Counted from the stretch's first letter, positions 2,863 to 55,294 are shown. The stretch is DNA of 64,000 nucleotides from Frankiales bacterium (GCA_025465465.1 JAODND010000091.1:20850-84849), one strand, 5' to 3'. Notes: generated by a model from the letters alone, not told the origin. Translations and numbers: made by a program.

Positions 2863-2875
2863 GGTCCGCTCGCTC

Positions 2876-4953: not shown

Positions 4954-4990
4954 GTGGGTCGCACCTACTCTCTCGGCGTCAGTTGTTGCG

Positions 4991-5856: not shown

Positions 5857-6967
5857 CAGCGAGCAGCGCGCGGCGGTGTGCCGAGGGTGACCCGAACGCG
5901 ACGCGTCCAGCGACCGCGCGCCGCAAGTACAGATGAGCCGGGTGCTCCCAGGTGTAGCCGATGCCCCCCAGCGTCTGGATCATCGTCCCCGCCGACTTGT
6001 AGGCGGCGTCCGAGGCGGCGGCCTTGGCGACATGCGACATGCTCACGGCCTCAGAGCTCGACATGGCCAGCTCCCGAAGGGCGTAGGACGTCACGCACTT
6101 CGCGGCCTCGTTGTCCATGTAGGCGTTGACGAGCTGGTGCTTCACGGCCTGGAAGCTGCCGATCTGGCGACCGAACTGCTCCCGCTGCAGGGCATACCGG
6201 ACGGCGACATCGACGCAGTGCTCGGCGATGCCCACGAGCTCAGCGGCCAGGCACGTGGGCACGAGGACGCGCAGGCGGTCCAGGACCCGTTGGCCGGCGT
6301 CGAAGGCGCCCAGTGGTCGGGCAGGTGCGCCTGCGAAGTCGATCTGCGCCGAGCTACGGGTCAGGTCCATCCCACCGGTCGCCGTGCGGACCTGCCCTTG
6401 GGCATCCCGGTCCACGGCGAAGCACATCGTCCCGTCGTCCGCCGCGGCGAGGACGACGAGCAGGTCCGCCTCGCAGCCGTCCCACACGTCCTCGGCCCGG
6501 CCGTCGAGCTGCCAGCCGTCGGGGCCCCGGGTGGCACGGACCCCCTGCGCGGCCATCAGGCCGTCGGTGCCCAGTGCCAGCCCTGCCAGGCTGGCCGTCA
6601 GCTTCCCCTGCACGATCCGCGGCAGCAGGTCCTGTTGCGCGACCTGGTCGCCCGACGCGAGCAGCGCCTGCCCGGCGAGCACGACGGTCGAGAAGTATGG
6701 ACCGGAGTAGAGGGCGCGCCCGAGCTCGGTGAGGACGACCCCGAGGAACGACAGGGGGGCGCCCGTGCCTCCGAGCTCGACGGGTGTGGCGACCCCCAGC
6801 ACGTCGACCTCGGTCGACAGCCTCGTCCAGAGTTCCGCGTCCGTCGGCGCGCACTGGTCGACGGCGGCGAGCTGACGCGACGCACTGGTGCTGGGCGCAA
6901 GGACCAGACGCAGGGTCTGCTGCAGCTGCCGGTGCTCTTCGTCGTGGTGCCGGCCGGAGCTGCTCAT
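5834..6967 (-). CDS. acyl-CoA dehydrogenase family protein (second subunit of a probable heteromeric pair)
   Basis: Internal ATG at 6967 (MSSSGRHHDEEHRQLQQTL...) forms an ATGA overlap with the upstream ACAD. The C-terminal TLGGIGYTWEHPAHLYLRRA is ACAD C-domain-like. Confidence 0.8.
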   Translation of the reverse strand: MSSSGRHHDEEHRQLQQTLRLVLAPSTSASRQLAAVDQCAPTDAELWTRLSTEVDVLGVATPVELGGTGAPLSFLGVVLTELGRALYSGPYFSTVVLAGQALLASGDQVAQQDLLPRIVQGKLTASLAGLALGTDGLMAAQGVRATRGPDGWQLDGRAEDVWDGCEADLLVVLAAADDGTMCFAVDRDAQGQVRTATGGMDLTRSSAQIDFAGAPARPLGAFDAGQRVLDRLRVLVPTCLAAELVGIAEHCVDVAVRYALQREQFGRQIGSFQAVKHQLVNAYMDNEAAKCVTSYALRELAMSSSEAVSMSHVAKAAASDAAYKSAGTMIQTLGGIGYTWEHPAHLYLRRAVAGRVAFGSPSAHRRALLAGAVRSGG

Positions 6968-8172
6968 CTCGGCTCCTTGGGGAGGCCCAGCAGCCGCTCC
7001 CCGATGATGTTGCGCTGGATCTCGCTCGAGCCGGCGTAGATGGTCGCGGCCCGAGCCCGGAGGAAGTAGTCGGCCCACACGCTGGGCGTGTTGGCGCTGC
7101 CGGCCTCGGCCGCCGGGAAGCTGACGCCCTGCAGCCCGGTGCCGCTCGCTGTGGTGGCTGCGGATCCGAGGATGTCCATCGCGAGCTCCGTCGTCATCTG
7201 CAGCCACTCGCTCCAGAACAGCTTGTGCAGCGAGGACTCAGCGCCGATGTCCCGACCACCCAACCAGCCGTCGACGGCCTGCCGTCCGAGGCAGCGCAGC
7301 TCCTCGACGCGCTGCAGGCTGTACGCGAGCCGCTCCGCCAGCACGGGGTCGGCGAGCTGCCCGCGCTCCGCCGCGAGATCGTGCAGCCGGTCGAAGTCTC
7401 GGCGGAAGCGGGTGCCCAGGGTGGCGACGGCCTCACCTCGCTCATAGCCGAGCAGGTCCATGGCGACCGCCCAACCGCCGTTCACAGGTCCCACGACGGC
7501 ATCGAGCGGGCAGCGGGCGTCGGTGAAGAAGACCTCGTTGAACTCTTCCTCGCCGGTGAGCGTCTTCAGCGGGCGGACCTCGATGCCGGGCTGGTCGAGC
7601 TCGCAGAGCAGGAGGCTGATGCCGCTGTGCTTGCCGGCCGAGGGGTCGGTCCGGCTGAGGACGAAGATGTGCGTCGCGAGGTGCCCGTACGAGGTCCAGA
7701 TCTTCTGGCCGTTGATGGTCCAGTGGTCGTCGCTCGCGACAGCCCGTGTGCGCAGGCCGGCCAGGTCCGAGCCGGCGTCCGGCTCGGAGAACCCCTGGCA
7801 CCAGACGTCGTCGCCGGCCAGGATCCGCGGGAGGTAGTGACGGCACTGCTCCTCCGTCCCCCACCGAAGCAGGGTGGACCCCAGCATCTGGATGCCGAAG
7901 TTGTCGTTCAGTCCGCCCTGGGGAACACCTACCGCGGTGCACTCCTCGGCGACGATGAGCTGCTCCAGCGGACCGAGCCCAGCACCTCCGTACTGCGTCG
8001 GCCAGGTGAGGGCCAACAGCCCGTTGCTGTGCATCAGCGCGCGCCACTCCTCGCGGAACTGGTCCTGCGCCGCAGGCAGCAGGGCACCGATGCCCGTCCA
8101 GTCGGCCGGCAGGTGCTCGCCCAGGAACGCGCGAACGCGGTCCCGGAACACCGATCCGGCAGGTGCGCTCAC
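6964..8172 (-). CDS. acyl-CoA dehydrogenase
   Basis: The GTG at 8172 forms a GTGA overlap with the thiolase stop. ACAD motifs are present (TWPTQYGGAGL, CQGFSEPDAGSD, IYAGSSEIQRNIIGERLLGLP). Confidence 0.85.
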   Translation of the reverse strand: MSAPAGSVFRDRVRAFLGEHLPADWTGIGALLPAAQDQFREEWRALMHSNGLLALTWPTQYGGAGLGPLEQLIVAEECTAVGVPQGGLNDNFGIQMLGSTLLRWGTEEQCRHYLPRILAGDDVWCQGFSEPDAGSDLAGLRTRAVASDDHWTINGQKIWTSYGHLATHIFVLSRTDPSAGKHSGISLLLCELDQPGIEVRPLKTLTGEEEFNEVFFTDARCPLDAVVGPVNGGWAVAMDLLGYERGEAVATLGTRFRRDFDRLHDLAAERGQLADPVLAERLAYSLQRVEELRCLGRQAVDGWLGGRDIGAESSLHKLFWSEWLQMTTELAMDILGSAATTASGTGLQGVSFPAAEAGSANTPSVWADYFLRARAATIYAGSSEIQRNIIGERLLGLPKEPR

Positions 8173-9320
8173 AAGCGTTCGATGATGGTGGCGTTCGCCT
8201 GGCCGCCGCCCTCGCACATCGACTGCAAGCCGTAGCGGGCGCCCCGACGCTCGAGCTCGTGCAGCATCGAGACCATGATCCGGGCGCCACTCGCACCGAT
8301 CGGGTGCCCAAGAGCGATGGCGCCCCCGTTGACGTTGATGCGCTCGCTCTCGGCGCCGATCTCCTGCTGCCACGCCAGCACGACAGAGGCGAACGCCTCG
8401 TTGATCTCGAAGAGGTCGATGTCCCCGACCTCGAGGCCAGCACGGCTGAGGGCAGCGTGCGTTGCGGCGATGGGGGCGGTCAGCATGTAGACCGGGTCGT
8501 CACCGCAGACCGACATCGTGTGCACCCTCGCCCGCGGGGTCAGCCCCAGGTCCTTGACGGCTCGCTCGGAGCAGACCAGCAGGGCGGCAGCCCCGTCACT
8601 GATCTGGCTCGAGAGCGCCGCGGTGATGACGCCGCCCTCGATGAGCGGCGGCAAGGACGCCATGCGTTCGAGGCTCGTGTCGGGCCGGGGGCACTCGTCC
8701 TGGGAGCCGCCGCCGAACGCCACGATCTCGCGCTCGAAGTAGCCCCGGTCCCTGGCAGCTGCGGCGCGCCGGTGGCTCGCCAGGGCGAACTCCTCCATCT
8801 GAGCGCGGGTCAGCCCCCACTTGGAGGCGATCAGCTCCGCGGCGCGGAACTGGTTGATGTCCTGGCCCCCGTAGCGCCGTTGCCACTTCTTGCTGGTGGC
8901 GAACGGGTCCGCATGCAGCAGGTCCGCACCCGCCGACCAGGCGATGTTGAGGGGCACCACGCTCATGAGCTGGACGCCACCAGCGACGACGACGTCCTGC
9001 ACGCCGCTCATCACGGCCTGGGCCGCGAAGTGCACCGCCTGCTGGGACGATCCGCACTGTCGATCGATCGTGACGCCGGGCACGGACTCGGGAAGGCCGG
9101 CAGCCAGCCAGGACAGCCGTGCGATGTCGCCCGCCTGCGGTCCGACGGCGTCCGTCGCGCCGAGGATGACGTCGTCGACGCGTGCGGGGTCGATCCCGGC
9201 CCGACCGATCAGGGCACTCAGCGTGTGCGCCGCGACGTCCACCGGGTGCTCCGCGCTCAGACTGCCGCCGCGCCGTCCGACCTGCGTGCGGACCGCTTCG
9301 ACGATGAATGCCTCGGGCAT
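8169..9320 (-). CDS. acetyl-CoA C-acyltransferase (thiolase II, FadA-like)
   Basis: Internal ATG at 9320 (MPEAFIVEAVRTQVGRRGG...). It has the active-site context TIDRQCGSSQQA and the C-terminal MCEGGGQANA. Confidence 0.9.
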   Translation of the reverse strand: MPEAFIVEAVRTQVGRRGGSLSAEHPVDVAAHTLSALIGRAGIDPARVDDVILGATDAVGPQAGDIARLSWLAAGLPESVPGVTIDRQCGSSQQAVHFAAQAVMSGVQDVVVAGGVQLMSVVPLNIAWSAGADLLHADPFATSKKWQRRYGGQDINQFRAAELIASKWGLTRAQMEEFALASHRRAAAARDRGYFEREIVAFGGGSQDECPRPDTSLERMASLPPLIEGGVITAALSSQISDGAAALLVCSERAVKDLGLTPRARVHTMSVCGDDPVYMLTAPIAATHAALSRAGLEVGDIDLFEINEAFASVVLAWQQEIGAESERINVNGGAIALGHPIGASGARIMVSMLHELERRGARYGLQSMCEGGGQANATIIERL

Positions 9321-9366
9321 CGGGAGTTCCCTCTGGTGTGTCGACACTGCAACACGGACGACGTTA

Positions 9367-9786
9367 TCAACCAAACGATTGGTAGTCAACGTCTCGTGAT
9401 GGCTCGCAGAGGTCCGCGAGCCGGCCCAGGGCCCGCCCGACGGACAGCGCGAGGCCTGCCAGCAGGTCGTCGGGCTCGAGCTCGGTCGTGTAGCTGACGG
9501 AGCACCGGTCGTCGCCCTCGGCCGTCACCTCGACCGTGCCGAGGTGCAGGTCGACCGCGAGTCCTTCCGTGATCCGGTACTGCAGCAGCCGGCGCTCGGG
9601 GTCGTTGACCAGGATCTGTTCAACGATCACCGCGCCGGAGTGCAGCTCGCAGACCCGCTGCGCGCCCTCCATCCGGCAGCTCTGCACGCTCGGAAACCAC
9701 TGGGGCAGCGCGCTCGCATCGCCGACGATCGCCCAGACGGACTCCGCTGCCGCCGCGAGCTGCCTGACCTGGCGATCCACGCTCAC
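9367..9786 (-). CDS. SRPBCC (polyketide cyclase/dehydrase-like) ligand-binding protein
   Basis: The GTG at 9786 is preceded by GGAGG 4 nt upstream. The sequence VDRQVRQLAAAAESVWAIVGDASALPQWFPSV... is typical of the SRPBCC N-terminus. Confidence 0.7.
   Translation of the reverse strand: MSVDRQVRQLAAAAESVWAIVGDASALPQWFPSVQSCRMEGAQRVCELHSGAVIVEQILVNDPERRLLQYRITEGLAVDLHLGTVEVTAEGDDRCSVSYTTELEPDDLLAGLALSVGRALGRLADLCEPSRDVDYQSFG
9370..9383. promoter_or_regulatory. candidate operator, site 1: ACCAAACGATTGGT
   Basis: A 14-bp palindrome 49 nt upstream of the thiolase start (9320), with flanks ca...ta conserved across the other sites. Confidence 0.6.
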
Positions 9787-9803
9787 GATACCTCCACGAG
9801 ACA

Positions 9804-9817
9804 ACCAACCGTTTGGT
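9804..9817. promoter_or_regulatory. candidate operator, site 2: ACCAACCGTTTGGT
   Basis: Lies in the 81-bp divergent gap between the SRPBCC start (9786) and the acyl-CoA ligase start (9868). Confidence 0.6.
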
Positions 9818-9867
9818 ACGGTACGCTGGTCATGCGAAGGTGACAAGCGCGTGACCGGGATGGAGCC

Positions 9868-11400
9868 ATGACGGAGCTCTCACTAGGTGAGGTGTTCGCG
9901 GCGCGCGCCCGTGACCTCGGCGCGTCGCCCGCTCTGATCGCCGACGGCGTCGAACTGAGCTTCGCCGAGCTCGACGACCGCGCCGGACGGCTGGCCGGTG
10001 CTCTGCGCGCCGCGTCGGTGGGGACCGGCAGCAGGGTCGGTTACCTCGGCAGGAACAGCTCCGAGTACGTCGTGTCGCTCGCCGCGTGCGGCAAGCTCGG
10101 CGCCGTCATGGTCCCGCTCAACTGGCGGCTGGCGCACGCAGAGCTGGTGGCGATCCTCGCCGACGCGCAGGCTGTTCTCGTCATCGTCGACGACGAGTTC
10201 ACCGCCGCCGCCGAGACCTTGCGCGCAGATCGCGGCGTCGCGGCCGACGTTCGGCTCGTCGACACCCGCTCGCCAGCCGGCCCCCGCTGGTACGACGGCC
10301 ACGCTCCGCACCTGCCGACGTCGCTGCCGCCCGCCGAGGCGGTTGCCCTCCAGCTGTACACGTCCGGCACCACCGGACGGCCGAAGGGCGTCCTGTCGAG
10401 CCACGTCTCGGTGATCGAGTCACTCAGGCTGCTCAGCCGCGTCGCCGGGATCCAGCGGTCCTCGGTCAGCCTGTGCACGCTGCCGACGTTCCACATCGGA
10501 GGGACGTCCTGGACACTGGCCGGCATCTTCGCCGGCTGTCCGACGGTGCTCCTGCGGGAGACCGACGCCGAGGCCGTGCTCGACGCCGTGGCGGCGCAGC
10601 ACGTCACGACGATGATCGCCGTGCCCGCCGTGATCCAGCTGCTCGTCGAAGCACTGCACGACGGCGACACCCGAGGGAAGACGCTCGAGCGGCTCTACTA
10701 CGGCGGTGGCCCGATGACCGGGCCGGTGCTGGAGCGCGCGCTCGCGGCGTTCGGCTGCGAGTTCGTGCAGGGCTTCGGCATGACCGAGCTGCCCTTGATG
10801 CTCGCGCTGACCCCTGACCTGCACGTGCCCGGCTCGCCGCTGCTGCTCTCGTGCGGACAGCTGGTGCCCGAGACCGAGGCGCGCATCGTCGACCCGGCGA
10901 CCGAGGCCGAGGTGGGCCCCGGCAGCGTGGGCGAGCTGTGGGTCAGGTCGTCGCGCACGATGCTCGGCTACTGGAACCAACCCGACGAGACGGCAAAGGC
11001 TCTCGTGCCCGGCGGCTGGCTGCGCACCGGCGACGCGATGCACGTGGACGAGGACGGCTTCTACTTCCTCCACGACCGCATCAAGGACGTCATCATCTCG
11101 GGCGGCGAGAACATCTACTCAGCCGAGGTCGAGAACGTGCTCATGGCCCATCCGGCGATCCTCGAGTGTGCCGTCATCGGCGTGCCGTCTGCTCGATGGA
11201 CCGAGACGGTCAAGGCCGTCGTGGTGCTGCGGGCAGGGCACTCGGCCGCTGACAGCGAGCTCATCAGCTTCTGCAGGGAGCGACTGGCCGGCTACAAGTG
11301 CCCGACCTCCGTCGAGGTCGTCGCCGCTCTGCCCCGGACCCCTTCGGGCAAGGTGCGGAAGGCCGACCTCCGAAAGCCGTACTGGCCTGCGACCCGCTAG
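9868..11400 (+). CDS. AMP-dependent acyl-CoA synthetase/ligase (FadD-like)
   Basis: 510 aa. It has the AMP-binding motif YTSGTTGRPKGV, plus GELWVRS, TGDA and PSGKVRK. Confidence 0.9.
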   Translation: MTELSLGEVFAARARDLGASPALIADGVELSFAELDDRAGRLAGALRAASVGTGSRVGYLGRNSSEYVVSLAACGKLGAVMVPLNWRLAHAELVAILADAQAVLVIVDDEFTAAAETLRADRGVAADVRLVDTRSPAGPRWYDGHAPHLPTSLPPAEAVALQLYTSGTTGRPKGVLSSHVSVIESLRLLSRVAGIQRSSVSLCTLPTFHIGGTSWTLAGIFAGCPTVLLRETDAEAVLDAVAAQHVTTMIAVPAVIQLLVEALHDGDTRGKTLERLYYGGGPMTGPVLERALAAFGCEFVQGFGMTELPLMLALTPDLHVPGSPLLLSCGQLVPETEARIVDPATEAEVGPGSVGELWVRSSRTMLGYWNQPDETAKALVPGGWLRTGDAMHVDEDGFYFLHDRIKDVIISGGENIYSAEVENVLMAHPAILECAVIGVPSARWTETVKAVVVLRAGHSAADSELISFCRERLAGYKCPTSVEVVAALPRTPSGKVRKADLRKPYWPATR

Positions 11401-12044
11401 CGCGGACGGGCCGCCGCGGCAGGCTCCGCGACACCGAGGACGGCTGCCAGCGCGAGCTGTGCGTAGCTCTTCGCGACCTCGGCCGGGGAGTCCTTCCCAT
11501 CCGGCCGGTACCAGTCGGCCACCCAGTTGGTCCCGCCGATGACGAACGACGACACGAACCGCTGGTTGACGGTGCCCTGGAGCCCCTTGAACTTGTACGC
11601 CGCGGCGATCAGGTCTCGCAGGTAGCGGTCGTACTGACGGCGGCGCTCCACCAGCTTCGCGCGCCGCTCACCTGTGAGATAGCGCCAGTCCCTGAAGTAC
11701 AGCGACTGCAGCTCCAGGTTCTGCAGGGTGTTGGCCACACCGCGCTCGAGGTAGGCCCGCAGCCGCTCGACGGGGTCGACGTCGAGCGCCTCGAGCTCTC
11801 GCATCATCAGCTCGGCGTCGCCATGCGCGTTCTCGAAGATCTGGAAGAGCAGGTCTTCCTTGGAGTCGATGTAGTGGTAGACGCTGCCCTTCAGCACGCC
11901 CACGGCATCCGCCACGTCCTGGATGCTGGCTGCCGCATAGCCCTTCTCCGCGAAGATGGCCAGAGCAGCCTGCAGGATCTCCGCTTCGCGGTTGCGGCGA
12001 CCGGCCGGCGCAGCACCGGACTTCCGCGCGTTCGACTTCATCAC
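11397..12044 (-). CDS. TetR/AcrR family transcriptional regulator
   Basis: 215 aa. The N-terminal HTH reads ILQAALAIFAEKGYAAASIQDVADAVGVLKGSVYHYIDSKEDLL. It converges on the ligase gene with a 4-nt overlap. Confidence 0.9.
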   Translation of the reverse strand: MMKSNARKSGAAPAGRRNREAEILQAALAIFAEKGYAAASIQDVADAVGVLKGSVYHYIDSKEDLLFQIFENAHGDAELMMRELEALDVDPVERLRAYLERGVANTLQNLELQSLYFRDWRYLTGERRAKLVERRRQYDRYLRDLIAAAYKFKGLQGTVNQRFVSSFVIGGTNWVADWYRPDGKDSPAEVAKSYAQLALAAVLGVAEPAAAARPR

Positions 12045-12095
12045 GCCCCCAGACGACCGTTCGTTCGGTACGCACCCTAGCCCGCGGAGCCTCGA

Positions 12096-12935
12096 TCAGA
12101 GCCCAGCTGCGTCGGCCATGACGGCAAGAGCTTCCAGGGACTTGTCGCGAGGCAGCGTCTCCAGCAGGAACACGCACACGTCCACGCCCATGGCTTCGTA
12201 GGACGCGATCTGCTCGGGGTCCGCCGCCATGCCGAACAGGTAGACGGGGACGCGCCCCCGCCCGAGCTCCTCCGACCTCCGGCGCAGTTCCGAGATCCGC
12301 TCCGGCAGGTCCGGCATCGGCGGCCAGCCTGGGTTGGGTGCCCACGCATCTGCGTACTCGAGGACCCGGTCGACGACCGTCGGCCCCATGCCACCGAGGA
12401 CGATCGGCGGGTGGGGAAGCTGCGCGGGTCTGGGCCGCACCGTGGTGGGCGCGATGGTCACGAGCTCCCCGTCGAAGCTGGCCACCTCCTCGGACCACAG
12501 CTGCGTGATGGCGCGCACCCGCTCACCGAGAAGCTTCGTGCGCGTGCGCGGATCCGTGCCGTGCTGCCGCATCTCGTCGACGTTCCAGCCCGCGCTCACG
12601 CCGAACACGAACCGCCCCCCGCTCAGCTGATCGAGGCTGGCGACCGACTTGGCGGTGTGGATCGGGTCACGCTGGACGAGCAGGCACATGCCGGTGCCCA
12701 CTCGCAGTGTCCGGGTTGCCGCGGCGGCAACCGTCAGGGCGACGAACGGGTCGTAGGTGTGGAAGTACTCGGGCGGAAGGTCTCCCCCACCGGGGTAGGG
12801 CGTCTCCCGGCTGGCAGGGATGTTGGAGTGCTCCGTCAGGAACAAGTAGTCGAACCCGTGTCCCTCCAGGCCCACGGCCAGGTCATCCGGCCGAATGCTG
12901 TCGTCGGTCGCGAACGTGACGATCCCGAACTCCAC
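12096..12935 (-). CDS. LLM-class (luciferase-like) F420-dependent oxidoreductase
   Basis: 279 aa. MEFGIVTFATDDSIRPDDLA...FDYLFLTEHSNIP...SGGRFVFGVSAGWN resembles the F420-dependent LLM subfamily. The GTG start is preceded by AAGGAG. Confidence 0.85.
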   Translation of the reverse strand: MEFGIVTFATDDSIRPDDLAVGLEGHGFDYLFLTEHSNIPASRETPYPGGGDLPPEYFHTYDPFVALTVAAAATRTLRVGTGMCLLVQRDPIHTAKSVASLDQLSGGRFVFGVSAGWNVDEMRQHGTDPRTRTKLLGERVRAITQLWSEEVASFDGELVTIAPTTVRPRPAQLPHPPIVLGGMGPTVVDRVLEYADAWAPNPGWPPMPDLPERISELRRRSEELGRGRVPVYLFGMAADPEQIASYEAMGVDVCVFLLETLPRDKSLEALAVMADAAGL

Positions 12936-12946
12936 TGCTGGCTCCT

Positions 12947-13153
12947 TCAGACGAACGCGATCGAGATGGCGGACTCAGGGCATCCGGAGGCGACGCGGCG
13001 CAGCTCTTCGAAACGGCTCTGCGGCTGCACCGCACCGAGGACCTCACCGAGACCGTCGTCGTTGTCGCCGGAGGCGAACACGTCCGGGCTGCCGAGCACG
13101 CACATCTGGTGGCCGCGGCACAGCCCCGGATCGATGGAGACCCTGAGCGTCAT
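12947..13153 (-). CDS. small ferredoxin (P450 redox partner type)
   Basis: Internal ATG at 13153 forms an ATGA overlap with the P450 stop. The 68-aa product is MTLRVSIDPGLCRGHQMCVLGSPDVF...ASGCPESAISI, a single-cluster ferredoxin pattern. Confidence 0.75.
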   Translation of the reverse strand: MTLRVSIDPGLCRGHQMCVLGSPDVFASGDNDDGLGEVLGAVQPQSRFEELRRVASGCPESAISIAFV

Positions 13154-14412
13154 GCAGCGCCCCGGGTCGACAGCCTGCGCCCAGGGGTGAAGGTGGCGGG
13201 CATCGTGACCCAGCCGTTGACGATGCCGAGGTTGGGGTACTGCCGGCTGCGCTGCTCGTCGATGGAGAAGTCCGGCATCCTGGTCAGGACCTCGCTGAGG
13301 ATGAGCTCCACCTGAGTGCGAGCCAGGTGCGACCCGAGGCACCGATGCAGCCCCAGCCCCCAGGACACGTGCTTGTTGGGCATGCGGTCCATGACGCACT
13401 CGTCCGCCCGCGGGAACGTCGCCTCATCGCGGTTCGCAGACGCGTAGGACAGCAGCACGCGCTCACCCGGCGACAGCACCTGACCGCCCAGCACCGCCGG
13501 CTTGCGCACCGTGCGAGCGAGTGCTTGGACGGGCGTGAACATGCGCATGAACTCCTCGGTGGCCACCGGCAGCCTCGACAGGTCGGAGACCAGGAACTCC
13601 CGCGCCTCCGGGTGCCGGCTGAGGTAGGCGAACGCGTTCGCCAGCAGCGTCGTGGTCGTGTCCACGCCGCCGGAGAACAGCGTGTAGACGACGCTCATCG
13701 CAGCCTCGTCGTCGATCGGCGCCCCGCCGATCTCCGCGCTCGCGACATGGCTGATCAGGTCGGCACCCGGATCACGCCGACGCCGGGCGATCAACTCGCG
13801 GATGCGCTCGACGATGCCTTGCAGGCCGGTGACAGCCTCGGCGTACTCCGGCGAGCCAGGTGGGTATCCCAGCGCGTTGTGGAACGGTTCGGAGTACGTC
13901 GCCCACTCCGCCACGTCGATACCGAGCAGCTGCAGGACCGAGCTCGCGGGGATGGCCGCAGCGATGTCGACGGCGAGGTCGCACTCACCCGCCTCGATGA
14001 CTTGGTCCACGTAGTGGGTGGTGAGCTCCGCGATCATCGGCCGGTAGTCCCAGACCGCTGTCGGCGAGAACCGCGGAGCGAGGAGCCGTCGGAAGTCCTC
14101 CCACTGCGGGTTGTCGACCTCGGTCGGGATCATCGGCACCAGCCCACGCTCGGCCGGTACGAAGATCCCGCCGCTGTAGTTGCCGGCGTCGTCGGTGGCG
14201 GCTCCGCTGGTGTACGTCACCGCGTCGCGGAGCACCTCCGACACCTCGGCATAGGACGTCACGACCCAGTAGCCGCCGTTGCTCTCCGACCAGGCCACGG
14301 GGGTGGAGTTGCGCAGCTCGCGATAGACCTCGAGCGGCCCACGAGCGGTGTGCTCGGGCGAGTTGTGGTCGAACGCGACGGGGCAGCGTGCTGTCGGCAG
14401 TTCCTGTGGCAT
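13150..14412 (-). CDS. cytochrome P450
   Basis: Internal ATG at 14412 (MPQELPTARCPVAFDH...). It has the EEFMR (ExxR) motif and the heme-thiolate loop HVSWGLGLHRCLGSHLAR. Confidence 0.9.
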   Translation of the reverse strand: MPQELPTARCPVAFDHNSPEHTARGPLEVYRELRNSTPVAWSESNGGYWVVTSYAEVSEVLRDAVTYTSGAATDDAGNYSGGIFVPAERGLVPMIPTEVDNPQWEDFRRLLAPRFSPTAVWDYRPMIAELTTHYVDQVIEAGECDLAVDIAAAIPASSVLQLLGIDVAEWATYSEPFHNALGYPPGSPEYAEAVTGLQGIVERIRELIARRRRDPGADLISHVASAEIGGAPIDDEAAMSVVYTLFSGGVDTTTTLLANAFAYLSRHPEAREFLVSDLSRLPVATEEFMRMFTPVQALARTVRKPAVLGGQVLSPGERVLLSYASANRDEATFPRADECVMDRMPNKHVSWGLGLHRCLGSHLARTQVELILSEVLTRMPDFSIDEQRSRQYPNLGIVNGWVTMPATFTPGRRLSTRGAA

Positions 14413-14444
14413 CACCACGTGTGGAGCCTCTCTGGTCGGCTCGT

Positions 14445-14798
14445 TCAGCGAGCGATGATCCCGTGCAGCTGGAGGTTCTTGCGACGCCGCTCCTGGGCGT
14501 CGGGGCTGATGAGCTCCGGGGTCCATTCCAGCCCGTGGTCCATGGAGACCGTGACGGACGCGACCCCGGGCAGCTCCGCGAGCCGCCGCTTGATCTCGAC
14601 GTCGAAGTAGCCGACGTTGTGGCACAGCGGCGCGGTCAGCCGCAGCGTGACATGGAGCCGCCCGTCGTCATCGAGGTCGACGGCCTTGACGAGGCCCATC
14701 TCCTCGATGCTCATCGGTGTGCCGGACGCGACGCTGCACGGGTCGCCTATCCCGTGCAGGATCTCGCGGACCTGGGCGTCGACTCCGGACTCAGCCAA
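14445..14798 (-). CDS. DUF59 / MIP18-family metal-sulfur cluster assembly-like protein
   Basis: 117 aa. VREILHGIGDPCSVASGTPMSIEEMGLVKAV...LTAPLCHNVGYF is the DUF59 (PaaD/SufT-like) pattern. It overlaps the upstream amidohydrolase by 8 nt. Confidence 0.75.
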   Translation of the reverse strand: MAESGVDAQVREILHGIGDPCSVASGTPMSIEEMGLVKAVDLDDDGRLHVTLRLTAPLCHNVGYFDVEIKRRLAELPGVASVTVSMDHGLEWTPELISPDAQERRRKNLQLHGIIAR

Positions 14799-15912
14799 CG
14801 CCGGCCGCCTCGGGCAGGGGCGTCATGACCGCGTCCTTGAGGGGCGTCGTCGAGTACGGGATCGGCAGAGGGCCGTGGTGCGTGAACTCGTCATCCTTGA
14901 TGCCTGCGGCGAGCTTGTCGACGTCGAAGCCGTGCAGGCGCGCGATGTTGCCGCTGAGGATGGCCTTCTTGTGCTCCCGGGTGAGCTGCGGGATGGGGAA
15001 GAAGATGCCCTTGCGAGCCATCTGCTCCTCGGTGAACTGGAAGTCCATGAAGGCCTCCAGCCCGGGCCGCGGGTGCGAGTTCATCGCCCCGGTCGCCCAG
15101 TAGATGCGCTCCAGGGCGGCCTCGCCAGCGACGCTCAACAGGCCCGCGAGCTGCTCGCCGAAGACGCTGGGCCGCATGGTCAGGACGAGGTTCATCGTCT
15201 CGAAGTTGACCCAGATGTTCGGGAAGCGGGCGAGCAGCCAGGCAGTCTCCTCGACGAAGGACAGGCCACCATGGACGATCGAGAAGTTGAGGTCCGGGAA
15301 GGCCGCTGCGGCACCCTCGACATCGACCGGGTTGAACGCATTGCCGCCCGACGGCGATGGTCCCATGGGCAGCGACTTGTGGATGGCGACGGACCGCAAG
15401 CCGAGCTCGCGGGCCTTCTCGTAGAGCGGGAACCCGATCTTCGGGTCGTCCATCCGCCACGGGGTGACCGTGCCCTCGTTGTAGCTGACCGGGTAGAGCT
15501 TGAGACCGACAGGGTTGTTCATCATCTCGACCTGCCGCTCCATCTCGCCCAGGGGGTCGGGGCGCAGCGGGTCGATGGACACGTAGGAGCCGATGAAGCG
15601 GTTCGGCCAGCGCTTGGTCGCCTCGAGCGCCTTGGCCACGCTGGAGTAGCCGTCCTTGAAGAAGTAGATGGGCACCGGGTGGAAGATCGCGACGTCGGTG
15701 TTCGACTCGCGGAACATGATGTCCGCCGTCTCCTCGACGCTCCAGTCGCGCAGCGTCTTCTCCCCCTCGAGGTCGTAGCCGGCCGGCTGCCCCGCAAAGA
15801 AGCTCGCCTGGAGCTGGCGCAGTGACTCCGCGTACTCCGGGGAGGCCATGTTGCCCTCGGTCATGTCGAACGCATGGGCCACGCCATCGATGACAAACAG
15901 TCCGTCCTGCAT
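14791..15912 (-). CDS. amidohydrolase-2 family protein (metal-dependent decarboxylase/lactonase superfamily)
   Basis: 373 aa. The N-terminal FVIDGVAHAF and the later IHKSLPMG, VHGG and WATGAM patterns fit a TIM-barrel amidohydrolase_2 protein. Confidence 0.8.
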   Translation of the reverse strand: MQDGLFVIDGVAHAFDMTEGNMASPEYAESLRQLQASFFAGQPAGYDLEGEKTLRDWSVEETADIMFRESNTDVAIFHPVPIYFFKDGYSSVAKALEATKRWPNRFIGSYVSIDPLRPDPLGEMERQVEMMNNPVGLKLYPVSYNEGTVTPWRMDDPKIGFPLYEKARELGLRSVAIHKSLPMGPSPSGGNAFNPVDVEGAAAAFPDLNFSIVHGGLSFVEETAWLLARFPNIWVNFETMNLVLTMRPSVFGEQLAGLLSVAGEAALERIYWATGAMNSHPRPGLEAFMDFQFTEEQMARKGIFFPIPQLTREHKKAILSGNIARLHGFDVDKLAAGIKDDEFTHHGPLPIPYSTTPLKDAVMTPLPEAAGVG

Positions 15913-15945
15913 GAGCGGGTCCCTTTCGAGGGTGACGAGTTACCA

Positions 15946-15959
15946 ACCAACCGTTTGGC
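15946..15959. promoter_or_regulatory. candidate operator, site 3: ACCAACCGTTTGGC
   Basis: Lies 33 nt upstream of the amidohydrolase start (15912), in the 113-bp gap after the SDR gene. Confidence 0.55.
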
Positions 15960-16025
15960 TGGACGCTATCCGTGCAACACACCTGGGTCAAGCCGTTCAC
16001 GCGTCGGACTCGCCGTCGCCTCGCG

Positions 16026-16862
16026 CTAGGCGATCAAGGCACCCGCGTCCACCGGAAGGGCGACGCCGGTGATGTAGCGGGCCTCGTCCGAGGCGAGGAA
16101 CAGCAGCGCGTTGCTGACGTCCCGCGACTCGACCCAGGGGATCGGCAGCGCGTTCATGGCCTGCGACGCCGGGGCGAAGTCCTCGCGCGTCGGATGTTCC
16201 AGGTCCGGGCGGAACAGCGCATAGGTGGACTCGTTCATGATCATCGGCGTGTCGACCTGCGTGGGGTGCAGGCTGTTCACGCGAATGTTCTGGGGCGCGA
16301 GCTCGAGGGCGAGGGTCCGCATGAGCCCGACCAGGCCGTGCTTGGCCGACACGTAGTGCGCCACGTTGGCATAGGCCTGCATCCCAGCGGCCGAGCTGGT
16401 GAGGACGATTGATCCTCCCTGGCCACCCGCCAGCAGGTGCGGGATCGCCGCTTTGCAGGTGCGCCAGACACCGCTGAGATTGATGTCGAGCATGGTGGTC
16501 CAGACGTCCTCGGGGATGTCCTGGGCGGGGTACGGTGCCGAGCTGATGCCCGCGTTCGCCGCCACGATGTCGAGACGGCCGAGGTGGGCCATGCCCTGCT
16601 CGACGGCCCCGTCGAGCGCCCGCTGGTCGCGCACATCGGCCTCGATGGCGACGATGCGGCGGCCCAGGTTCTTCACCTCATCGACCGTGCGCGCAAGATC
16701 GTCTGAGGTCGGCCCCGGATAGGGCACCCCCTTGATGTCCTTGCAGATGTCGACGGCGATCACGTCGGCGCCTTCCTCGGCAAGCCGAAGGGCGTGCGCC
16801 CGACCCTGACCTCGGGCCGCCCCGGTGATGAGAGCCACCTTGCCCTCGACTCGACCTGTCAT
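16026..16862 (-). CDS. mycofactocin-coupled / carveol-dehydrogenase-type SDR oxidoreductase
   Basis: 278 aa. The N-terminus GKVALITGAARGQGRAHALRLAEEGADVIAVDIC plus the long insertion before the second strand are hallmarks of this SDR subfamily. Confidence 0.8.
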   Translation of the reverse strand: MTGRVEGKVALITGAARGQGRAHALRLAEEGADVIAVDICKDIKGVPYPGPTSDDLARTVDEVKNLGRRIVAIEADVRDQRALDGAVEQGMAHLGRLDIVAANAGISSAPYPAQDIPEDVWTTMLDINLSGVWRTCKAAIPHLLAGGQGGSIVLTSSAAGMQAYANVAHYVSAKHGLVGLMRTLALELAPQNIRVNSLHPTQVDTPMIMNESTYALFRPDLEHPTREDFAPASQAMNALPIPWVESRDVSNALLFLASDEARYITGVALPVDAGALIA

Positions 16863-16889
16863 GTGCCGTCCACCGTTCTGTCCGGAGTG

Positions 16890-17963
16890 CTACTGGCTGA
16901 TGGGATGCGCCGCGGCGCCGACCGAGTTGTCGGGGCCCGCGCCAGGGGGCTCGGGATTCACCTCGGCGGGTTCGGCAGGTGTCACGCGAGCGGCACCGAC
17001 GCCACGTCGGCGAAGCGAACCGGCGTACAGCCCGAACCCGACACCGAGGATGAGGGCGGCGCCGTCGAAGAACTGGTTGACCCACGGAGAGGCGCCCCAC
17101 AGCGTGAGCCCGTTGACGCTGACGGCCAGGAAGAAGACGGCGGCGACGGTTCCCCAGACGTTGTAGCGGCCCGGTTGGATGGTCGTCGCACCCAGGAAGG
17201 CAGCGGCGATGGCCGGCAGCGTGTAGTTGGGTCCGAGCTGCGGCGTACCGGATCCGACGTTCGCGACCAGCAGGATGCCGGCACCGCCCGCGATGCCCCC
17301 AGCGATGACGTGCGCGCTGAAGACCCGACGCGGGACCCGGATGCCGACGAGCAGCGCCGCCCGCGGGTTCGAGCCCAGGGCGTACAGGTCCTTGCCCGCA
17401 GGTGTCCGCTCCAGCCCGTACCAGACCGCGATGGCACAGAGGACGAAGAAGTAGAAGAGCTTCGGCAGGCCGATCCACTTTCCCGCGCCGAGCCCGATCA
17501 GCTTGGGGCTGATGCCAGTGGTGATCGAGAGTCCCTTGGAATAGGCAAGGACCAGCGCGCTGATGACGCTCGCGATGCCGAGGGTGGCGATGATGGAGGG
17601 GATGCCGGCCTTGGCGACCAGGAGTCCGTTGACCACGCCGACTGCCAGTCCCAGCGCAATGGCCGCGACGACGGCTGCCCCGAGCGACCACCCGGACTTC
17701 GACATCAACCCGGCGCACACCACTCCGCTGAAGCCCGCGGTGGGACCGATCGACAGGTCGATCTGACCCGCGACCAGGGGTATCACCGTCGCGATCGCGA
17801 GGATGCCCAGTAGCGACTGGTCGGTGAGGATGTTGGTGATGTTGGCCGACGACCCGAACTGCGGCGTGGCGGAGTTGAACTTGAAGAAGATGCCGATCGC
17901 GACGAGCAGGCCGACGAGCCCGTAGCGCTCGACGAGCTCGATGACCTTCGACGTGTACCTCAT
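16890..17963 (-). CDS. ABC transporter permease, CUT2 (ribose/xylose-type) family
   Basis: 357 aa, polytopic, with RbsC-like sequence. Its start overlaps the ATPase stop. Confidence 0.9.
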   Translation of the reverse strand: MRYTSKVIELVERYGLVGLLVAIGIFFKFNSATPQFGSSANITNILTDQSLLGILAIATVIPLVAGQIDLSIGPTAGFSGVVCAGLMSKSGWSLGAAVVAAIALGLAVGVVNGLLVAKAGIPSIIATLGIASVISALVLAYSKGLSITTGISPKLIGLGAGKWIGLPKLFYFFVLCAIAVWYGLERTPAGKDLYALGSNPRAALLVGIRVPRRVFSAHVIAGGIAGGAGILLVANVGSGTPQLGPNYTLPAIAAAFLGATTIQPGRYNVWGTVAAVFFLAVSVNGLTLWGASPWVNQFFDGAALILGVGFGLYAGSLRRRGVGAARVTPAEPAEVNPEPPGAGPDNSVGAAAHPISQ

Positions 17964-19501
17964 CGCGTCAACCTCTGGTTCTCGAGAACGATTTCAAGCA
18001 GCTCATGTGCGGTGGTCTGGTCATGCACTTCCTGGGTCACCTGACCACGACACAGGACGAGGATCCGGTCACTGAGGCGGGTGAGCTCCTCGAACTCAGA
18101 GCTCGCCAGCACCACGGCCATGCCTTTCCTGCTCGCTTCCGCGATCAGCCCGAGGATGGCCTCGCGAGCACCCACGTCGATGCCTTGCGTCGGTTCGTCG
18201 AGGAGCAGGATCGCCGGGTCGGTGCGCAGCCAACGACCCAGTACGACCTTTTGCTGGTTCCCGCCCGACAGGGTCTCGATGCCGGCTTGCGCGCCGGGCG
18301 CCTTGACCGAGTAGCGCGTGAGGTCGCGCGTGACCTCGGCGACCATCAGCCTGCGCCGGAACCAGCCCCGACGGAAGTAGCGTCGGCTCTGCCCGACGGT
18401 CATGTTGGTCGCGACGCTGTGCTCCGGGAAGACGCCACCTGTGCCGCGATCCTCGGGCACGAACGCGACGCCGTGTGACTTCATGCGGGCGGACGTCGGA
18501 AAGCGAACGGCCTCGCCGCGCACGAGCAGGTCACCGCTGTTGATCCTCCGCACCCCGAAGATGGCCTCGAGCAGCTCGGTGCGGCCACTGCCCAGCAGGC
18601 CGGCGATCCCGACGATCTCACCGGGGCGGAGCGTGAAGCTGACGTCCCGCACCGGTCCAGCGCTCACGTGCCGGAGCTCCAGCACAGGGGCCTCGGACCG
18701 GGCGATCCGCCCGGCACCCGTCGTCACGTTGATCTTGCCGCCGAGGATCAGCTCGACCAGCTTGGGCTCGGTGAGATCCGCGGCGTCCAAGGTGCCCGCG
18801 TTCCTGCCGTCACGCAGGCACGTGACCCGATCAGCTGCCTGCCGCACCTCGTCCAGCCGATGACTCACCAGAACCACGCTGTGCCCCGCGTCGGCAAGCC
18901 TCCGCAAGGTCCGGAGCAGCTCGCCCGCCTCCTCGGCGGGCAGGGCTGCAGTGGGCTCGTCGAGGACGAGGATCGCTCGGTGCTGCTCGTCGACGTCCTG
19001 CAGCGCCCGGCCGATCGCGAGCAGCGCACGCTGCGGCATGGAGAGCGTCGACGCCAGGGCTTGCGGGTCCACGTCCAGGTCGAGCCGTCGCAAGACCTCG
19101 CGCACTCGCTCGCGGCTCGCCCGTGCCCTGATGCTGCCCGTAGGCCCCGTGACGAACTGACCACCGAGCCCGAGGTTGTCGGCCACGCTCAGGATCGGGA
19201 ACACCCCCAGGTCCTGGTGCACGAACCGGAAGCCCGCCCGTGCGGCCTCCTCCGGGCGATGTCCTGTGAGGTCCGTCGTCACGTCATCGATGTCGAGCGA
19301 GCCCTCGTCGGCGGACAGCACCCCCGCGAGGATCTTGATGAGCGTCGACTTGCCCGATCCGTTGCCACCGACCAGGGCATGGACCTCGCCCCAGGTCAGC
19401 TGGAGGTCGACGTTGTCGAGTGCCTGGGTGTTGCCGAAGCGCTTCGACAGTCCGCGCACCGCAACTGCGGTGCGCGGACCGTCGATCGTGGCGGGCTTCA
19501 T
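17960..19501 (-). CDS. ABC transporter ATP-binding protein, fused double ATPase (RbsA-like)
   Basis: Internal ATG at 19501 (MKPATIDGPRTAVAVRGLSKRFG...) forms a TGATG overlap with the substrate-binding protein (SBP) stop. It has Walker A GGNGSGKST and the signatures LSMPQR and LSGGNQQKV. Confidence 0.9.
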   Translation of the reverse strand: MKPATIDGPRTAVAVRGLSKRFGNTQALDNVDLQLTWGEVHALVGGNGSGKSTLIKILAGVLSADEGSLDIDDVTTDLTGHRPEEAARAGFRFVHQDLGVFPILSVADNLGLGGQFVTGPTGSIRARASRERVREVLRRLDLDVDPQALASTLSMPQRALLAIGRALQDVDEQHRAILVLDEPTAALPAEEAGELLRTLRRLADAGHSVVLVSHRLDEVRQAADRVTCLRDGRNAGTLDAADLTEPKLVELILGGKINVTTGAGRIARSEAPVLELRHVSAGPVRDVSFTLRPGEIVGIAGLLGSGRTELLEAIFGVRRINSGDLLVRGEAVRFPTSARMKSHGVAFVPEDRGTGGVFPEHSVATNMTVGQSRRYFRRGWFRRRLMVAEVTRDLTRYSVKAPGAQAGIETLSGGNQQKVVLGRWLRTDPAILLLDEPTQGIDVGAREAILGLIAEASRKGMAVVLASSEFEELTRLSDRILVLCRGQVTQEVHDQTTAHELLEIVLENQRLTR

Positions 19502-20670
19502 CAGCCCGTGACACCCCAGGACTTGGCGTACGCGGCGGGGACGTCGAAGGAGGGCTTGAAGTCCTGGCCCTTCGGCGGGAGGTCGGTCGTCGCGTCGACG
19601 ATCTGGAAGCCCAGGCCCTCGTCCCTGGCCGGCGTCTTGTTGAAGTAGCTGTTGAGGGTGTCCACGGCGCCATAGGCCCACCACTCGAGCGGCCACGAGT
19701 TGACGGCATCCAGGCCCTGGCCGGACCGCACCGTGTCGTAGTCGGCGGCGACGCCGAAGCCACCGATCATCTTCACCTTGCCGACCAGGCCGCCCTGGAC
19801 AACAGCCTGGGTGATGCCCAGGGTCGGGTTGGTGGCTCCGTGTGCAGCAACAGCGTCAGGGTTCTGGAGGAAGGAGGCCTTGGCCTTCGAGGTGAGCGTC
19901 GGGCCGAAGTCGGCCGCGAGCCAGTCGACCTTCACGCGCTTGCAGTCGGGGCAGACGGAACTGACCTGTGCCGCGTAGCCCTGCTCGAGCAGCTTGAGGG
20001 TCGTGTACTCATTGTTGGCGAAGTCGATGATGGTGCCCTTGCAGTTCGCCTGCTTGATGTCCCACGCCGCAGACGTCGCGCCGTAGGCGCGGACCGCATC
20101 GGCGAAGTCCTTGTAGCGGGACCCGAAGCTGATGTGGGTCGCGAAGACCGGTGCTTGCCCGGACGTCGAGGGGTCGTCGTTGAGGTCCCAGCCCTGCACG
20201 GAGATGGTCGGGATCCCGGCAGCGGTCGCCTGCTGGACAGCAGCCTTGACGAGCGGCGCGTCCAGGCCGACGCCGACGATGCCGTCGACCTTCGACGCCA
20301 CGGCCTCCTTCACCAGCACCGGGAACTGCGCGGGATCGAGCTTGGCGTCGTAGAGCTTGGACTGCCAGCCGATCGCCGCAGCGGCCTTCTGGACCCCAGC
20401 GGCACCGACGGCGACGGTGGGTGACGCCATCCCGACCGCGACGATGGCAATCTTCTTGCCCTTCGCCGCGGGGTTCGCCTCAGTGGGCGGCGTCGTGTAG
20501 GTCTTGGCCGCCGCTGTCTGCGTCACGGCTGCGATGCAGTCGGTGGACGAGGACGCGGACGTGCCCGTGCTCGGCGAGGCTGTGGCCCCCGTCCCCGACG
20601 ACGATGAGCAGCCGGCGAGGGCCGTGGCAATGGCAGTGACAGACATGGCGAGCTGCGCGCTTCTTCGCAC
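19501..20670 (-). CDS. ABC transporter substrate-binding lipoprotein (PBP type I, sugar-binding-like)
   Basis: The GTG at 20670 is preceded by AAGGGG. The signal peptide VRRSAQLAMSVTAIATALAGCSSS includes a lipobox. The ORF-track 5' extension to 20799 was dropped. Confidence 0.85.
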   Translation of the reverse strand: MRRSAQLAMSVTAIATALAGCSSSSGTGATASPSTGTSASSSTDCIAAVTQTAAAKTYTTPPTEANPAAKGKKIAIVAVGMASPTVAVGAAGVQKAAAAIGWQSKLYDAKLDPAQFPVLVKEAVASKVDGIVGVGLDAPLVKAAVQQATAAGIPTISVQGWDLNDDPSTSGQAPVFATHISFGSRYKDFADAVRAYGATSAAWDIKQANCKGTIIDFANNEYTTLKLLEQGYAAQVSSVCPDCKRVKVDWLAADFGPTLTSKAKASFLQNPDAVAAHGATNPTLGITQAVVQGGLVGKVKMIGGFGVAADYDTVRSGQGLDAVNSWPLEWWAYGAVDTLNSYFNKTPARDEGLGFQIVDATTDLPPKGQDFKPSFDVPAAYAKSWGVTG

Positions 20671-20724
20671 GTCGACCCCTTCGCGAATGAGCTGTGACCC
20701 ACGCCACAGGCAGTACCACTGTCT

Positions 20725-20742
20725 ACCAATCGGTCGTTTGGT
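20725..20742. promoter_or_regulatory. candidate operator, site 4 (variant spacing): ACCAATCGGTCGTTTGGT
   Basis: Lies 54 nt upstream of the SBP start (20670). It has the same ACCAA/TTGGT arms and ct..tg flanks, but 8 nt rather than 4 nt between the arms. Confidence 0.4.
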
Positions 20743-20868
20743 TGTCAACAGCTCCGCAACGTCCGCGAGCCCTACCTCGACCTCGTCGAGGTAGGGCAAC
20801 GGGCGTGCTTGTGCTCGTCGTCCGAGCTCCCGTGCGCGAAGGCTCTGGTTGCGGCGACGAGCCGGCTA

Positions 20869-55220: not shown

Positions 55221-55294
55221 TAGCGGGGGCAGGATTTGAACCTGCGACCTCTGGGTTATGAGCCCAGCGAGCTACCGAGCTGCTCCACCCCGCG
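55221..55294 (-). tRNA. initiator tRNA-Met (CAT anticodon)
   Basis: Minus-strand sequence CGCGGGGTGGAGCAGCTCGGTAGCTCGCTGGGCTCATAACCCAGAGGTCGCAGGTTCAAATCCTGCCCCCGCTA. It has a 1:72 mismatch (C:T) and three G-C pairs in the anticodon stem, as in initiator tRNAs. The CCA end is not encoded. Confidence 0.9.

Follow-up and report, generated by a model that had tools for sequence, protein, structure and literature searches.

The closest described counterparts of the system reported here are the TetR-type regulators KstR2, PfmR and AibR. KstR2 (Rv3557c; Mycobacterium tuberculosis, M. smegmatis and Rhodococcus jostii) and AibR (Myxococcus xanthus) both bind coenzyme A (CoA) thioesters. The KstR2 ligand is HIP-CoA, which releases the protein from DNA; AibR binds DNA only together with its CoA ligand, isovaleryl-CoA, and its target is a biosynthetic operon. 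The KstR2 box is AnCAAGnnCTTGnT (PMC3068626). The consensus site of PfmR (TTHB023, Thermus thermophilus HB8) is quoted in PMC7022988 as 5'-TACCGACCGNTNGGTN-3', and PfmR is described there as a repressor of its own fatty-acid-type enzyme operon and of a few other promoters. AibR recognises the operator ACCTACCG-NN-CGGTAGGT, in which Lys47 and Tyr51 contact G12-G13-T14, and its complex contains two DNA registers 4 bp apart (PMC5389471; structure 5K7Z). Here we describe a stretch of 64,000 nucleotides from a Frankiales bacterium (GCA_025465465.1, JAODND010000091.1:20850-84849; hereafter the window), in which one palindromic box recurs at five sites of a catabolic gene cluster that also encodes a TetR-type regulator at positions 11397-12044. 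Judging from sequence, these boxes are probably the operators of a homodimeric TetR_C_24 repressor, which is most likely the product of that gene.

The regulator and its described relatives

The regulator is a protein of 215 residues carrying a TetR_N domain at residues 23-68 (56.3 bits, cut-off 24) and a TetR_C_24 domain (PF17932) at residues 89-201 (96.5 bits, gathering threshold 26.4), which place it in the TetR family and in the TetR_C_24 subgroup respectively. A total of 135 solved TetR structures match it, the best being 3dcf, PfmR (3vpr, second, E 4e-22), RHA1 2ibd, AibR (5k7f, fourth, E 4e-19), SCO3833 and KstR2 (4w97). KstR2, with an E value of 1e-17 and as the sixth or seventh best solved relative, is not its orthologue. 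The protein thus belongs to the group of KstR2, PfmR and AibR, and by analogy with this acyl-CoA-sensing group it would bind a CoA thioester. The base-contacting pair of AibR is conserved, as Lys47 and Tyr51 align with K52 and Y56 of the window protein; an RHA1 KstR2-like protein has Ser at the position equivalent to Lys52, where both the window protein and AibR have Lys. The initial annotation had singled out this gene as the only regulator of the block, and indeed no other TetR paralogue is encoded in the 64 kb. A literature search with the exact box sequences returned one unrelated match and no paper on this regulator or cluster.

The boxes of KstR2, PfmR and AibR and those of the window can be fitted to one common ACC-N8-GGT frame, either as a 14-bp site or, with two registers, as an 18-bp site, the AibR part of this alignment being our own inference. 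KstR2 shares with the window protein both domains and a WYRPxG motif near the C-terminus. Its box, also palindromic and 14 bp long, agrees in the outer frame (A-C-A-A ... T-T-G-T), and several such boxes likewise occupy promoter gaps in a compact gene cluster that encodes acyl-CoA enzymes of a catabolic pathway together with the regulator itself. The two boxes differ at the centre, nCGn in the window versus GnnC in KstR2, and at position 13, which is G in the window. The PfmR site holds ACCGAnCGnTnGGT, with the same frame and a central CG. PfmR, from another phylum, has the half-site ACCGA instead of ACCAA, ACCGA-like half-sites occurring in the window only at weak sites, and controls a small set of phenylacetate and fatty-acid genes, unlike the regulon proposed here. 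The AibR operator has the same 18-bp layout as site 4 of the window, with 12 of 16 arm positions identical, and the two registers of the AibR crystal match the two overlapping registers of that site, whereas four of the five window sites are of the compact 14-bp form.

As for the regulated genes, the closest counterpart of the thiolase operon is the igr/ChsE-ChsH-Ltp2 side-chain module of actinobacterial steroid catabolism, with which it shares a two-subunit acyl-CoA dehydrogenase, paired MaoC-type hydratase subunits and an Ltp2-like protein with a DUF35/ChsH2 OB-fold partner. The system of the window differs from the igr system in that ring-degrading steroid genes are absent from the window, the regulator is of the TetR_C_24 type and not KstR, and the acyl-CoA dehydrogenases match best as PimC/PimD-like.

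Occurrence of the box in the window

The window, whose G+C content is about 69%, was scanned with the pattern ACCAANCGNTTGGT (also written ACCAAnCGnTTGGT), allowing at most one mismatch, and the counts were compared with 100 dinucleotide-preserving shuffles. Exactly three matches were found, at sites 1 to 3 (Table 1), against an expectation of 0.05, and none of the shuffles reached three. The spaced pattern ACCAA-N(2-12)-TTGGT gave three matches versus 0.11 expected, one of them being the 18-bp ACCAATCGGTCGTTTGGT of site 4, so that both the palindrome shared by several sites and the existence of a fourth, longer site were confirmed. At three mismatches the number of boxes was close to background (23 versus 13.7 expected); site 5, which the initial annotation had overlooked, is among them. 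The palindrome is therefore shared as then proposed, but among five operator regions in place of four.

A position weight matrix (PWM) trained on 63 boxes from loci outside the window was then run over it. The six highest scores fell on the five sites, site 4 contributing two (20725 and 20729), and a clear gap separated them from the seventh, which scored 9.1; between 24 and 64 kb nothing rose above background. Several lower-ranked entries were the main sites displaced by 4 bp, and sub-threshold matches lay exactly 4 bp to one or both sides of every main box as a result of an ACCA/TGGT phasing. This weak phasing supports the 'ca...tg' flanks already noted around the palindrome, which are real but weakly conserved, C at -1 having a frequency of 0.64 and A at 0 of 0.48 among the 63 training sites. 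It also recalls the two registers of the AibR-DNA crystal and may, by analogy, reflect binding of two dimers.

Site 4 consists of two overlapping 14-bp registers 4 bp apart (20725-20738 and 20729-20742), in each of which one ACC/GGT triplet is perfect and the other imperfect. Since this is the AibR-type 18-bp layout, the site is not an odd spacing variant. The distances of 49 nt from site 1 to the thiolase operon and of 33 nt from site 3 to the amidohydrolase operon proved correct; the 54 nt given for site 4 become 78 nt from the substrate-binding protein (SBP) gene of the ATP-binding cassette (ABC) transporter operon if the ATG at 20646 is the start, which is the codon used in the gene calls of close relatives. 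All five sites fall in the approximately 3% of the block that is non-coding, with a qualification for site 1: the SRPBCC open reading frame (ORF) of the window reads through it with its last four codons, while in the orthologues the stop codon precedes the box.

Table 1. Position and description of the regulator, boxes, putative promoters and target units in the window.
Feature	Position	Strand	Description
TetR-family regulator, proposed repressor	11397..12044	-	TetR_N and TetR_C_24, Pfam E 2.8e-15 and 1.5e-27
Operator site 1, ACCAAACGATTGGT	9370..9383	.	exact match; PWM 34.4, best of the window; in spacer of thiolase-operon promoter
Putative thiolase-operon promoter	9361..9389	-	-35 TTGACT 9389-9384; 17-nt spacer holding site 1; -10 TAACGT 9366-9361; read from sequence
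Operator site 2, ACCAACCGTTTGGT	9804..9817	.	exact match; PWM 27.3; divergent gap between SRPBCC and acyl-CoA ligase genes
Putative ligase promoter	9798-9827	+	GAGACA 9798-9803; 18-nt spacer holding site 2; TACGCT 9822-9827; read from sequence
Putative SRPBCC promoter	9846-9818	-	TTGTCA 9846-9841; TACCGT 9823-9818; site 2 directly downstream; read from sequence
Operator site 3, ACCAACCGTTTGGC	15946..15959	.	one mismatch; PWM 23.9; just downstream of amidohydrolase-operon -10
Putative amidohydrolase-operon promoter	15963..15991	-	-35 TTGACC 15991-15986; 17-nt spacer; -10 TAGCGT 15968-15963
Operator site 4, 18-bp form, ACCAATCG-GT-CGTTTGGT	20725..20742	.	PWM 25.2 and 21.3
-35 hexamer TTGACA of ABC-transporter operon promoter	20743..20748	-	adjoins site 4; -10-like TAGACA/GACAGT 20725-20718 downstream
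Operator site 5 (weak), ACCGTTCGTTCGGT	12056..12069	.	three mismatches; PWM 12.7, sixth; 11 nt upstream of TetR start codon
4-bp-shifted PWM matches	9366-9387, 9800-9813, 12052-12065, 15942-15963, 20721-20734		example ACCAACCAACCG at site 3
Target unit 1, ten close-packed genes	318..9320	-	coordinates from homology to called genes of L082, L086, L089
Target unit 2a, SRPBCC protein	9367..9786	-	Polyketide_cyc2 (Pfam)
Target unit 2b, acyl-CoA ligase	9868..11400	+	AMP-binding; proposed producer of the effector thioester
Target unit 3	12096..15912	-	Amidohydro_2, DUF59 (FeS_assembly_P), P450, ferredoxin, F420-type luciferase-like oxidoreductase
Target unit 4, CUT2-type ABC importer and short-chain dehydrogenase/reductase (SDR)	16026..20646	-	SBP 19501-20646; ATPase 17960-19501; permease 16890-17963; SDR 16026-16862
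Terminator-like hairpin	20770..20796	-	12-bp stem, 3-nt loop, no T-run; -32.5 kcal/mol, z -6.1; between Band_7 gene and site 4 promoter

Conservation of the sites in orthologous loci

Orthologous clusters were taken from Frankia sp. AiPs1 (L001), from metagenome contigs (L081-L088 and L090) and from Subtercola boreus (L089). The nearest genome is that of Frankia sp. AiPs1, whose TetR is 78% identical, while Frankiales metagenome contigs carry the same cluster with TetR 97% and SBP 99% identical. In the alignments of the intergenic regions all five sites appeared as conserved islands between diverged flanks: the specified bases are constant, together with the adjoining TTGAC -35 element where present, whereas variation affects the two 'n' positions and the outer flanks. 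Conserved TTGAC (-35) and TAnnnT (-10)-like hexamers flank or adjoin the boxes in the orthologues.

At site 1, TTGAC-n-ACCAATCGTTTGGT is the sole long invariant block of the spacer between the SRPBCC and thiolase genes (aligned with L001, L082 and L084). The TAnnnT hexamer follows 17-18 nt past TTGAC, so the box would fill the spacer of a conserved promoter, and this hexamer spacing is kept in four orthologous loci. The site 2 box is conserved as well, with two boxes in L001 and L084, which have longer gaps, and the TAnnnT hexamer 4 nt from the box is also found in those two loci. Site 3 shows an invariant CTTGACC, then a TAnnnT-like hexamer whose position is kept in four loci, and then an invariant CAAACGGTTGGTTGGT (L086, L087 and L084). 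The 18-bp form of site 4 also occurs in L086 (SBP 88% identical) with changed central bases (ACCAACCG-AA-CGATTGGT versus ACCAAACG-AC-CGATTGGT); upstream of the orthologous SBP genes, a 14-bp box is present in canonical form in L088 and as one good register in L087. The TTGACA and AGACAGT elements at this site are kept in the window and L086, with the near-match AGAAACT in L087. At site 5, L081, L001, L082 and L084 share the block CC(A/G)AAC(A/G)A(A/T)CGGT immediately before the TetR start, and boxes scoring better than that of the window precede the TetR gene in L084, L086 and L087. Autoregulation of the TetR gene through this putative site is thus probable.

The clusters of Subtercola boreus and of a metagenome contig have boxes at equivalent places, and the 18-bp layout occurs twice in Subtercola. 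The Subtercola boxes lie at 834-924, 10666-10679 and 15170-15187, and those of L090 at 3967, 4384 and 10765. Both loci, the first from the Microbacteriaceae and the second from another metagenome lineage, show the same regulon layout, but a Peripla_BP_6 branched-chain-type ABC importer replaces the sugar-type one, and an extra box lies inside the thiolase operon, before the gene for the 300-residue protein.

Association of the box with TetR homologues

The sample comprised 1.28 Mb of sequence around 80 TetR homologues of 28-78% identity, with first-order Markov simulations and nine permuted palindromes as controls. The box (at most one mismatch) occurred 57 times in 32 loci, compared with 1.3 occurrences in the simulations and 0-4 for the permuted palindromes, an enrichment of about 40-fold. 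Twenty of the 57 boxes were less than 1 kb from a TetR start, and nine sites in eight loci were 50-160 nt upstream of it. These loci span Actinomycetota, one Anaerolineae bin and one Peptococcaceae genome. The genes next to the boxes of the sample mainly encode TetR_C_24 regulators, SDR, luciferase-like (LLM) proteins, thiolases, acyl-CoA ligases, enoyl-CoA hydratases, Ltp-like proteins, acyl-CoA dehydrogenases and SRPBCC proteins. Covariation between recognition helix and box presence was uninformative in the sampled loci, the helix being nearly invariant because they had been retrieved with a peptide pattern lying within it.

The local TetR protein as the most plausible binder

The initial annotation had proposed one palindromic operator common to several units, with the local TetR protein as its most plausible binder. 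The independent PWM, the phylogenetic footprints, the overlap with putative promoters and the enrichment beside homologues all support this proposal, and the system appears to be an uncharacterised acyl-CoA-type TetR repressor with multiple putative operators in a catabolic cluster, a conclusion that is well supported and unsurprising.

Several observations weigh against it. Site 5, with its three mismatches, is possibly weak or non-functional. A strict scan for E. coli-type sigma-70 promoters and terminators over the region of sites 1 and 2 called none, for which reason the promoter elements were read from the alignments, and the hexamers were read by eye. The core of the PWM derives from pattern-selected sites; it is thus free of window sequence, though not independent of the pattern itself. 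The same box also accompanies TetR_C_24 paralogues of 30-56% identity, so that another paralogue of the genome could bind or share the sites of the window. A Solirubrobacterales subgroup (L008, L012, L013, L016, L018, L023, L024, L033 and others) has the identical recognition helix, LKGSLYHYIDSK, and no ACCAA box within 3 kb, hence the helix alone does not predict the box. Finally, AibR needs its ligand in order to bind DNA, and the sign of the ligand effect is therefore not safely transferred by homology. In the Solirubrobacterales subgroup another conserved element, TATAAAGTCC...GGACTTT, was observed upstream of the TetR homologue.

The alternative that best withstands these data is that the boxes are genuine TetR_C_24 operators occupied, mainly or additionally, by a paralogue encoded elsewhere in the genome. 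Besides the homologues of only 30-56% identity mentioned above, some loci, L066 among them, combine three or four paralogues with several boxes in a stretch of 16 kb. In L086 the TetR (12268-12921) is just 56% identical to that of the window, although the boxes persist and the enzymes beside it show 83-94% identity; apparently this regulator gene was either replaced or evolved far more rapidly than the regulon did. Taken together, the association with paralogues and the divergence of L086 indicate that the box belongs to a clade of paralogues. However, the window encodes no TetR besides the local one, whose start codon is closely preceded by a conserved box and whose close orthologues (70-97% identity) remain beside boxes in syntenic clusters. 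We thus consider occupation by a paralogue from elsewhere in the genome rather unlikely and retain the local protein as the probable repressor.

Proposed mechanism of regulation

Each dimer of the local TetR protein would read one ACC-N8-GGT palindrome, with the consensus caACCAAnCGnTTGGTtg, through a recognition helix bearing the Lys/Tyr pair that in AibR contacts GGT. The box would lie inside the -35/-10 spacer for the thiolase operon, the ligase and the ABC transporter, and directly downstream of the -10 element for the SRPBCC gene and the amidohydrolase operon, with another box just upstream of the start codon of the repressor. From these positions, bound repressor would be expected to exclude or block RNA polymerase at five promoters, which span about 20 kb and would govern uptake by the ABC importer, oxidative tailoring (SDR, amidohydrolase, P450/ferredoxin and F420 oxidoreductase), CoA activation and an igr-like beta-oxidation/retro-aldol module. 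Following the KstR2 model, the co-regulated ligase would make a CoA thioester from the pathway substrate, and this thioester would bind the C-terminal domain and release the repressor. The arrangement would thus amount to an ordinary on/off switch for the degradation of a fatty-acid-like compound or a similar route. We infer a CoA thioester as the effector because KstR2 and AibR sense CoA esters and the regulated genes encode acyl-CoA enzymes; repression as the sign of regulation is likewise suggested by analogy, and ligand-triggered release fits a regulon for catabolism and uptake.

The opposite logic, in which the regulator would need a bound CoA thioester to occupy its sites and would so exert feedback repression, finds its precedent in the requirement of AibR for isovaleryl-CoA at its operator and in the AibR-like arms of site 4. 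Yet the target genes here serve uptake and catabolism, the ligase expected to make the ligand among them, and end-product repression would shut the pathway as soon as substrate became available. KstR2, the regulator of a catabolic cluster, is functionally the closer analogue. This logic therefore appears improbable, and release of the repressor by the thioester is preferred.

Tentatively, the regulon might represent an undescribed catabolic route conserved in Frankiales and Microbacteriaceae, combining import through a CUT2 or branched-chain-type ABC transporter with oxidative tailoring (P450/ferredoxin, F420 oxidoreductase, amidohydrolase and SDR), activation to the CoA ester and loss of a branched side chain in an igr-like manner. 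The same scenario, possible as a whole but far from assured, would have an alicyclic, isoprenoid or steroid-like acid as the substrate, its CoA ester as a new TetR_C_24 effector, and the 14- and 18-bp forms binding one dimer and two dimers 4 bp apart respectively, giving graded repression. A branched or alicyclic acid is our guess for the substrate.

These results provide a regulon map of an uncharacterised 20-kb catabolic cluster, in which five putative operators are placed relative to putative promoters and candidates are named for the repressor and for the ligase producing the effector. The cluster is conserved in soil actinobacteria, namely Frankiales, Subtercola and many metagenome bins, and the repressor/operator pair could be used to search for the substrate in derepression screens or as a biosensor. 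Moreover, the common ACC-N8-GGT frame may help to predict sites for the very large TetR_C_24 group. The current understanding of TetR-type regulation is not overturned by these findings, which also offer an entry point to the pathway.

Relation to the KstR and KstR2 regulons

The initial annotation had stated that the motif was neither the KstR nor the KstR2 box. The first part stands, as the KstR box, given there as TnnAACnnGTTnnA, does not fit the window sites, and the NCBIfam KstR model scored 32.9 bits on the regulator against a cut-off of 280. The second part needs qualification: the two boxes are not identical, but 8 of the 10 specified KstR2 positions are shared within the same 14-bp frame and the protein is of the KstR2 group. 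Owing to this common frame, the box is closer to that of KstR2 than had been supposed.

That the cluster is the KstR2 regulon itself, devoted to catabolism of steroid rings C/D (HIP), might be argued from the common C-terminal Pfam domain, from the match to KstR2 structures and from the label 'cholesterol catabolism regulator' that some sources attach to homologues. The window boxes, however, have neither G6 nor C9, but A, C or T at the first of these positions and, apart from the G of site 4, A or T at the second; their CG centre is fixed where KstR2 has nn; closer solved relatives of the regulator exist; and the ligase scored 280 bits against the FadD3 cut-off of 657. The KstR2 cluster comprises fadD3, ipdAB, ipdC, echA20 and fadE30-33; IpdAB-type CoA transferases and other HIP genes are absent from the annotated genes here, which include a family III CoA-transferase, the igr-like module, a P450, an amidohydrolase and a sugar-type ABC importer. 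On the basis of box centre, protein distances and gene content we reject this identity as highly improbable.

That the boxes are random matches, members of a small mobile or repetitive element, or RNA hairpins, as their shortness and the 4-bp ACCA/TGGT phasing of their flanks could suggest, has a negligible probability given the shuffles, the conserved position relative to the -35/-10 elements, the enrichment at homologous loci, a repeat search that put the boxes in no longer repeat family (the flanks beyond about 22 bp being unrelated), and the weak folding of the box hairpins (z +0.05 to -2.0), which together with the lack of an Rfam match at the boxes led us to discard a role at the RNA level. 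Over the whole window Rfam matched one tRNA gene only (55221-55294, minus strand).

Gene map and target units

The gene map was built from an ORF map based on G+C content at third codon positions together with Pfam and NCBIfam searches. All genes of the block lie on the minus strand except the ligase. Along the direction of transcription the order is Band_7, zinc-dependent alcohol dehydrogenase, hairpin, site 4, SBP, ABC ATPase, permease, SDR and site 3, followed by Amidohydro_2, DUF59, P450, ferredoxin, F420-type LLM, site 5 and TetR. The TetR gene (12044 to 11397) is convergent with the acyl-CoA ligase, after which come site 2, SRPBCC, site 1 and the thiolase operon. On the enzymes NCBIfam returned only generic names and assigned no pathway, the KstR, FadD3 and CasG models remaining far below their cut-offs; the ligase was recognised just as a member of a generic long-chain ligase subfamily and not as FadD3 or CasG.

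Unit 1 comprises, in order, a thiolase, two PimC/PimD-like acyl-CoA dehydrogenases, two MaoC-type hydratase subunits, a 300-residue protein, an Ltp2-like thiolase-fold protein, a DUF35/ChsH2-OB protein, a family III CoA-transferase and an SDR, and the gene order is the same in L082, L084 and L089. The protein of about 300 residues (4054-4953, minus strand), which has no Pfam match, lies between the MaoC-type hydratase and Ltp2-like genes and occupies the same place in those three loci. Transcription of the SRPBCC gene may read on into unit 1, and that of unit 3 may continue into the TetR gene.

Within unit 3, a ferredoxin-like ORF of 68 residues (12947-13153, minus strand) has an ATGA overlap with the stop codon of the P450 gene (13150-14406, minus strand). 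This P450-ferredoxin pair is found in the window, L086 and L084 and is absent from the otherwise near-identical L081 (TetR 97%) and also from L001 and L087; from this patchy distribution it behaves as an insertion/deletion cassette within the operon.

Upstream of unit 4, the strong hairpin listed in Table 1 is likely a terminator marking the boundary of the regulon; L086 and L087 have transposases instead of the Band_7 and alcohol dehydrogenase genes upstream of the SBP gene. Within unit 4, a near-perfect 42-bp palindrome (19444-19485) with 20-nt arms, 95% complementary, and a 2-nt loop occupies the first 20 or so codons of the ABC ATPase gene, directly after the SBP stop codon, and may form an mRNA hairpin that sets the ratio of SBP to ATPase expression.

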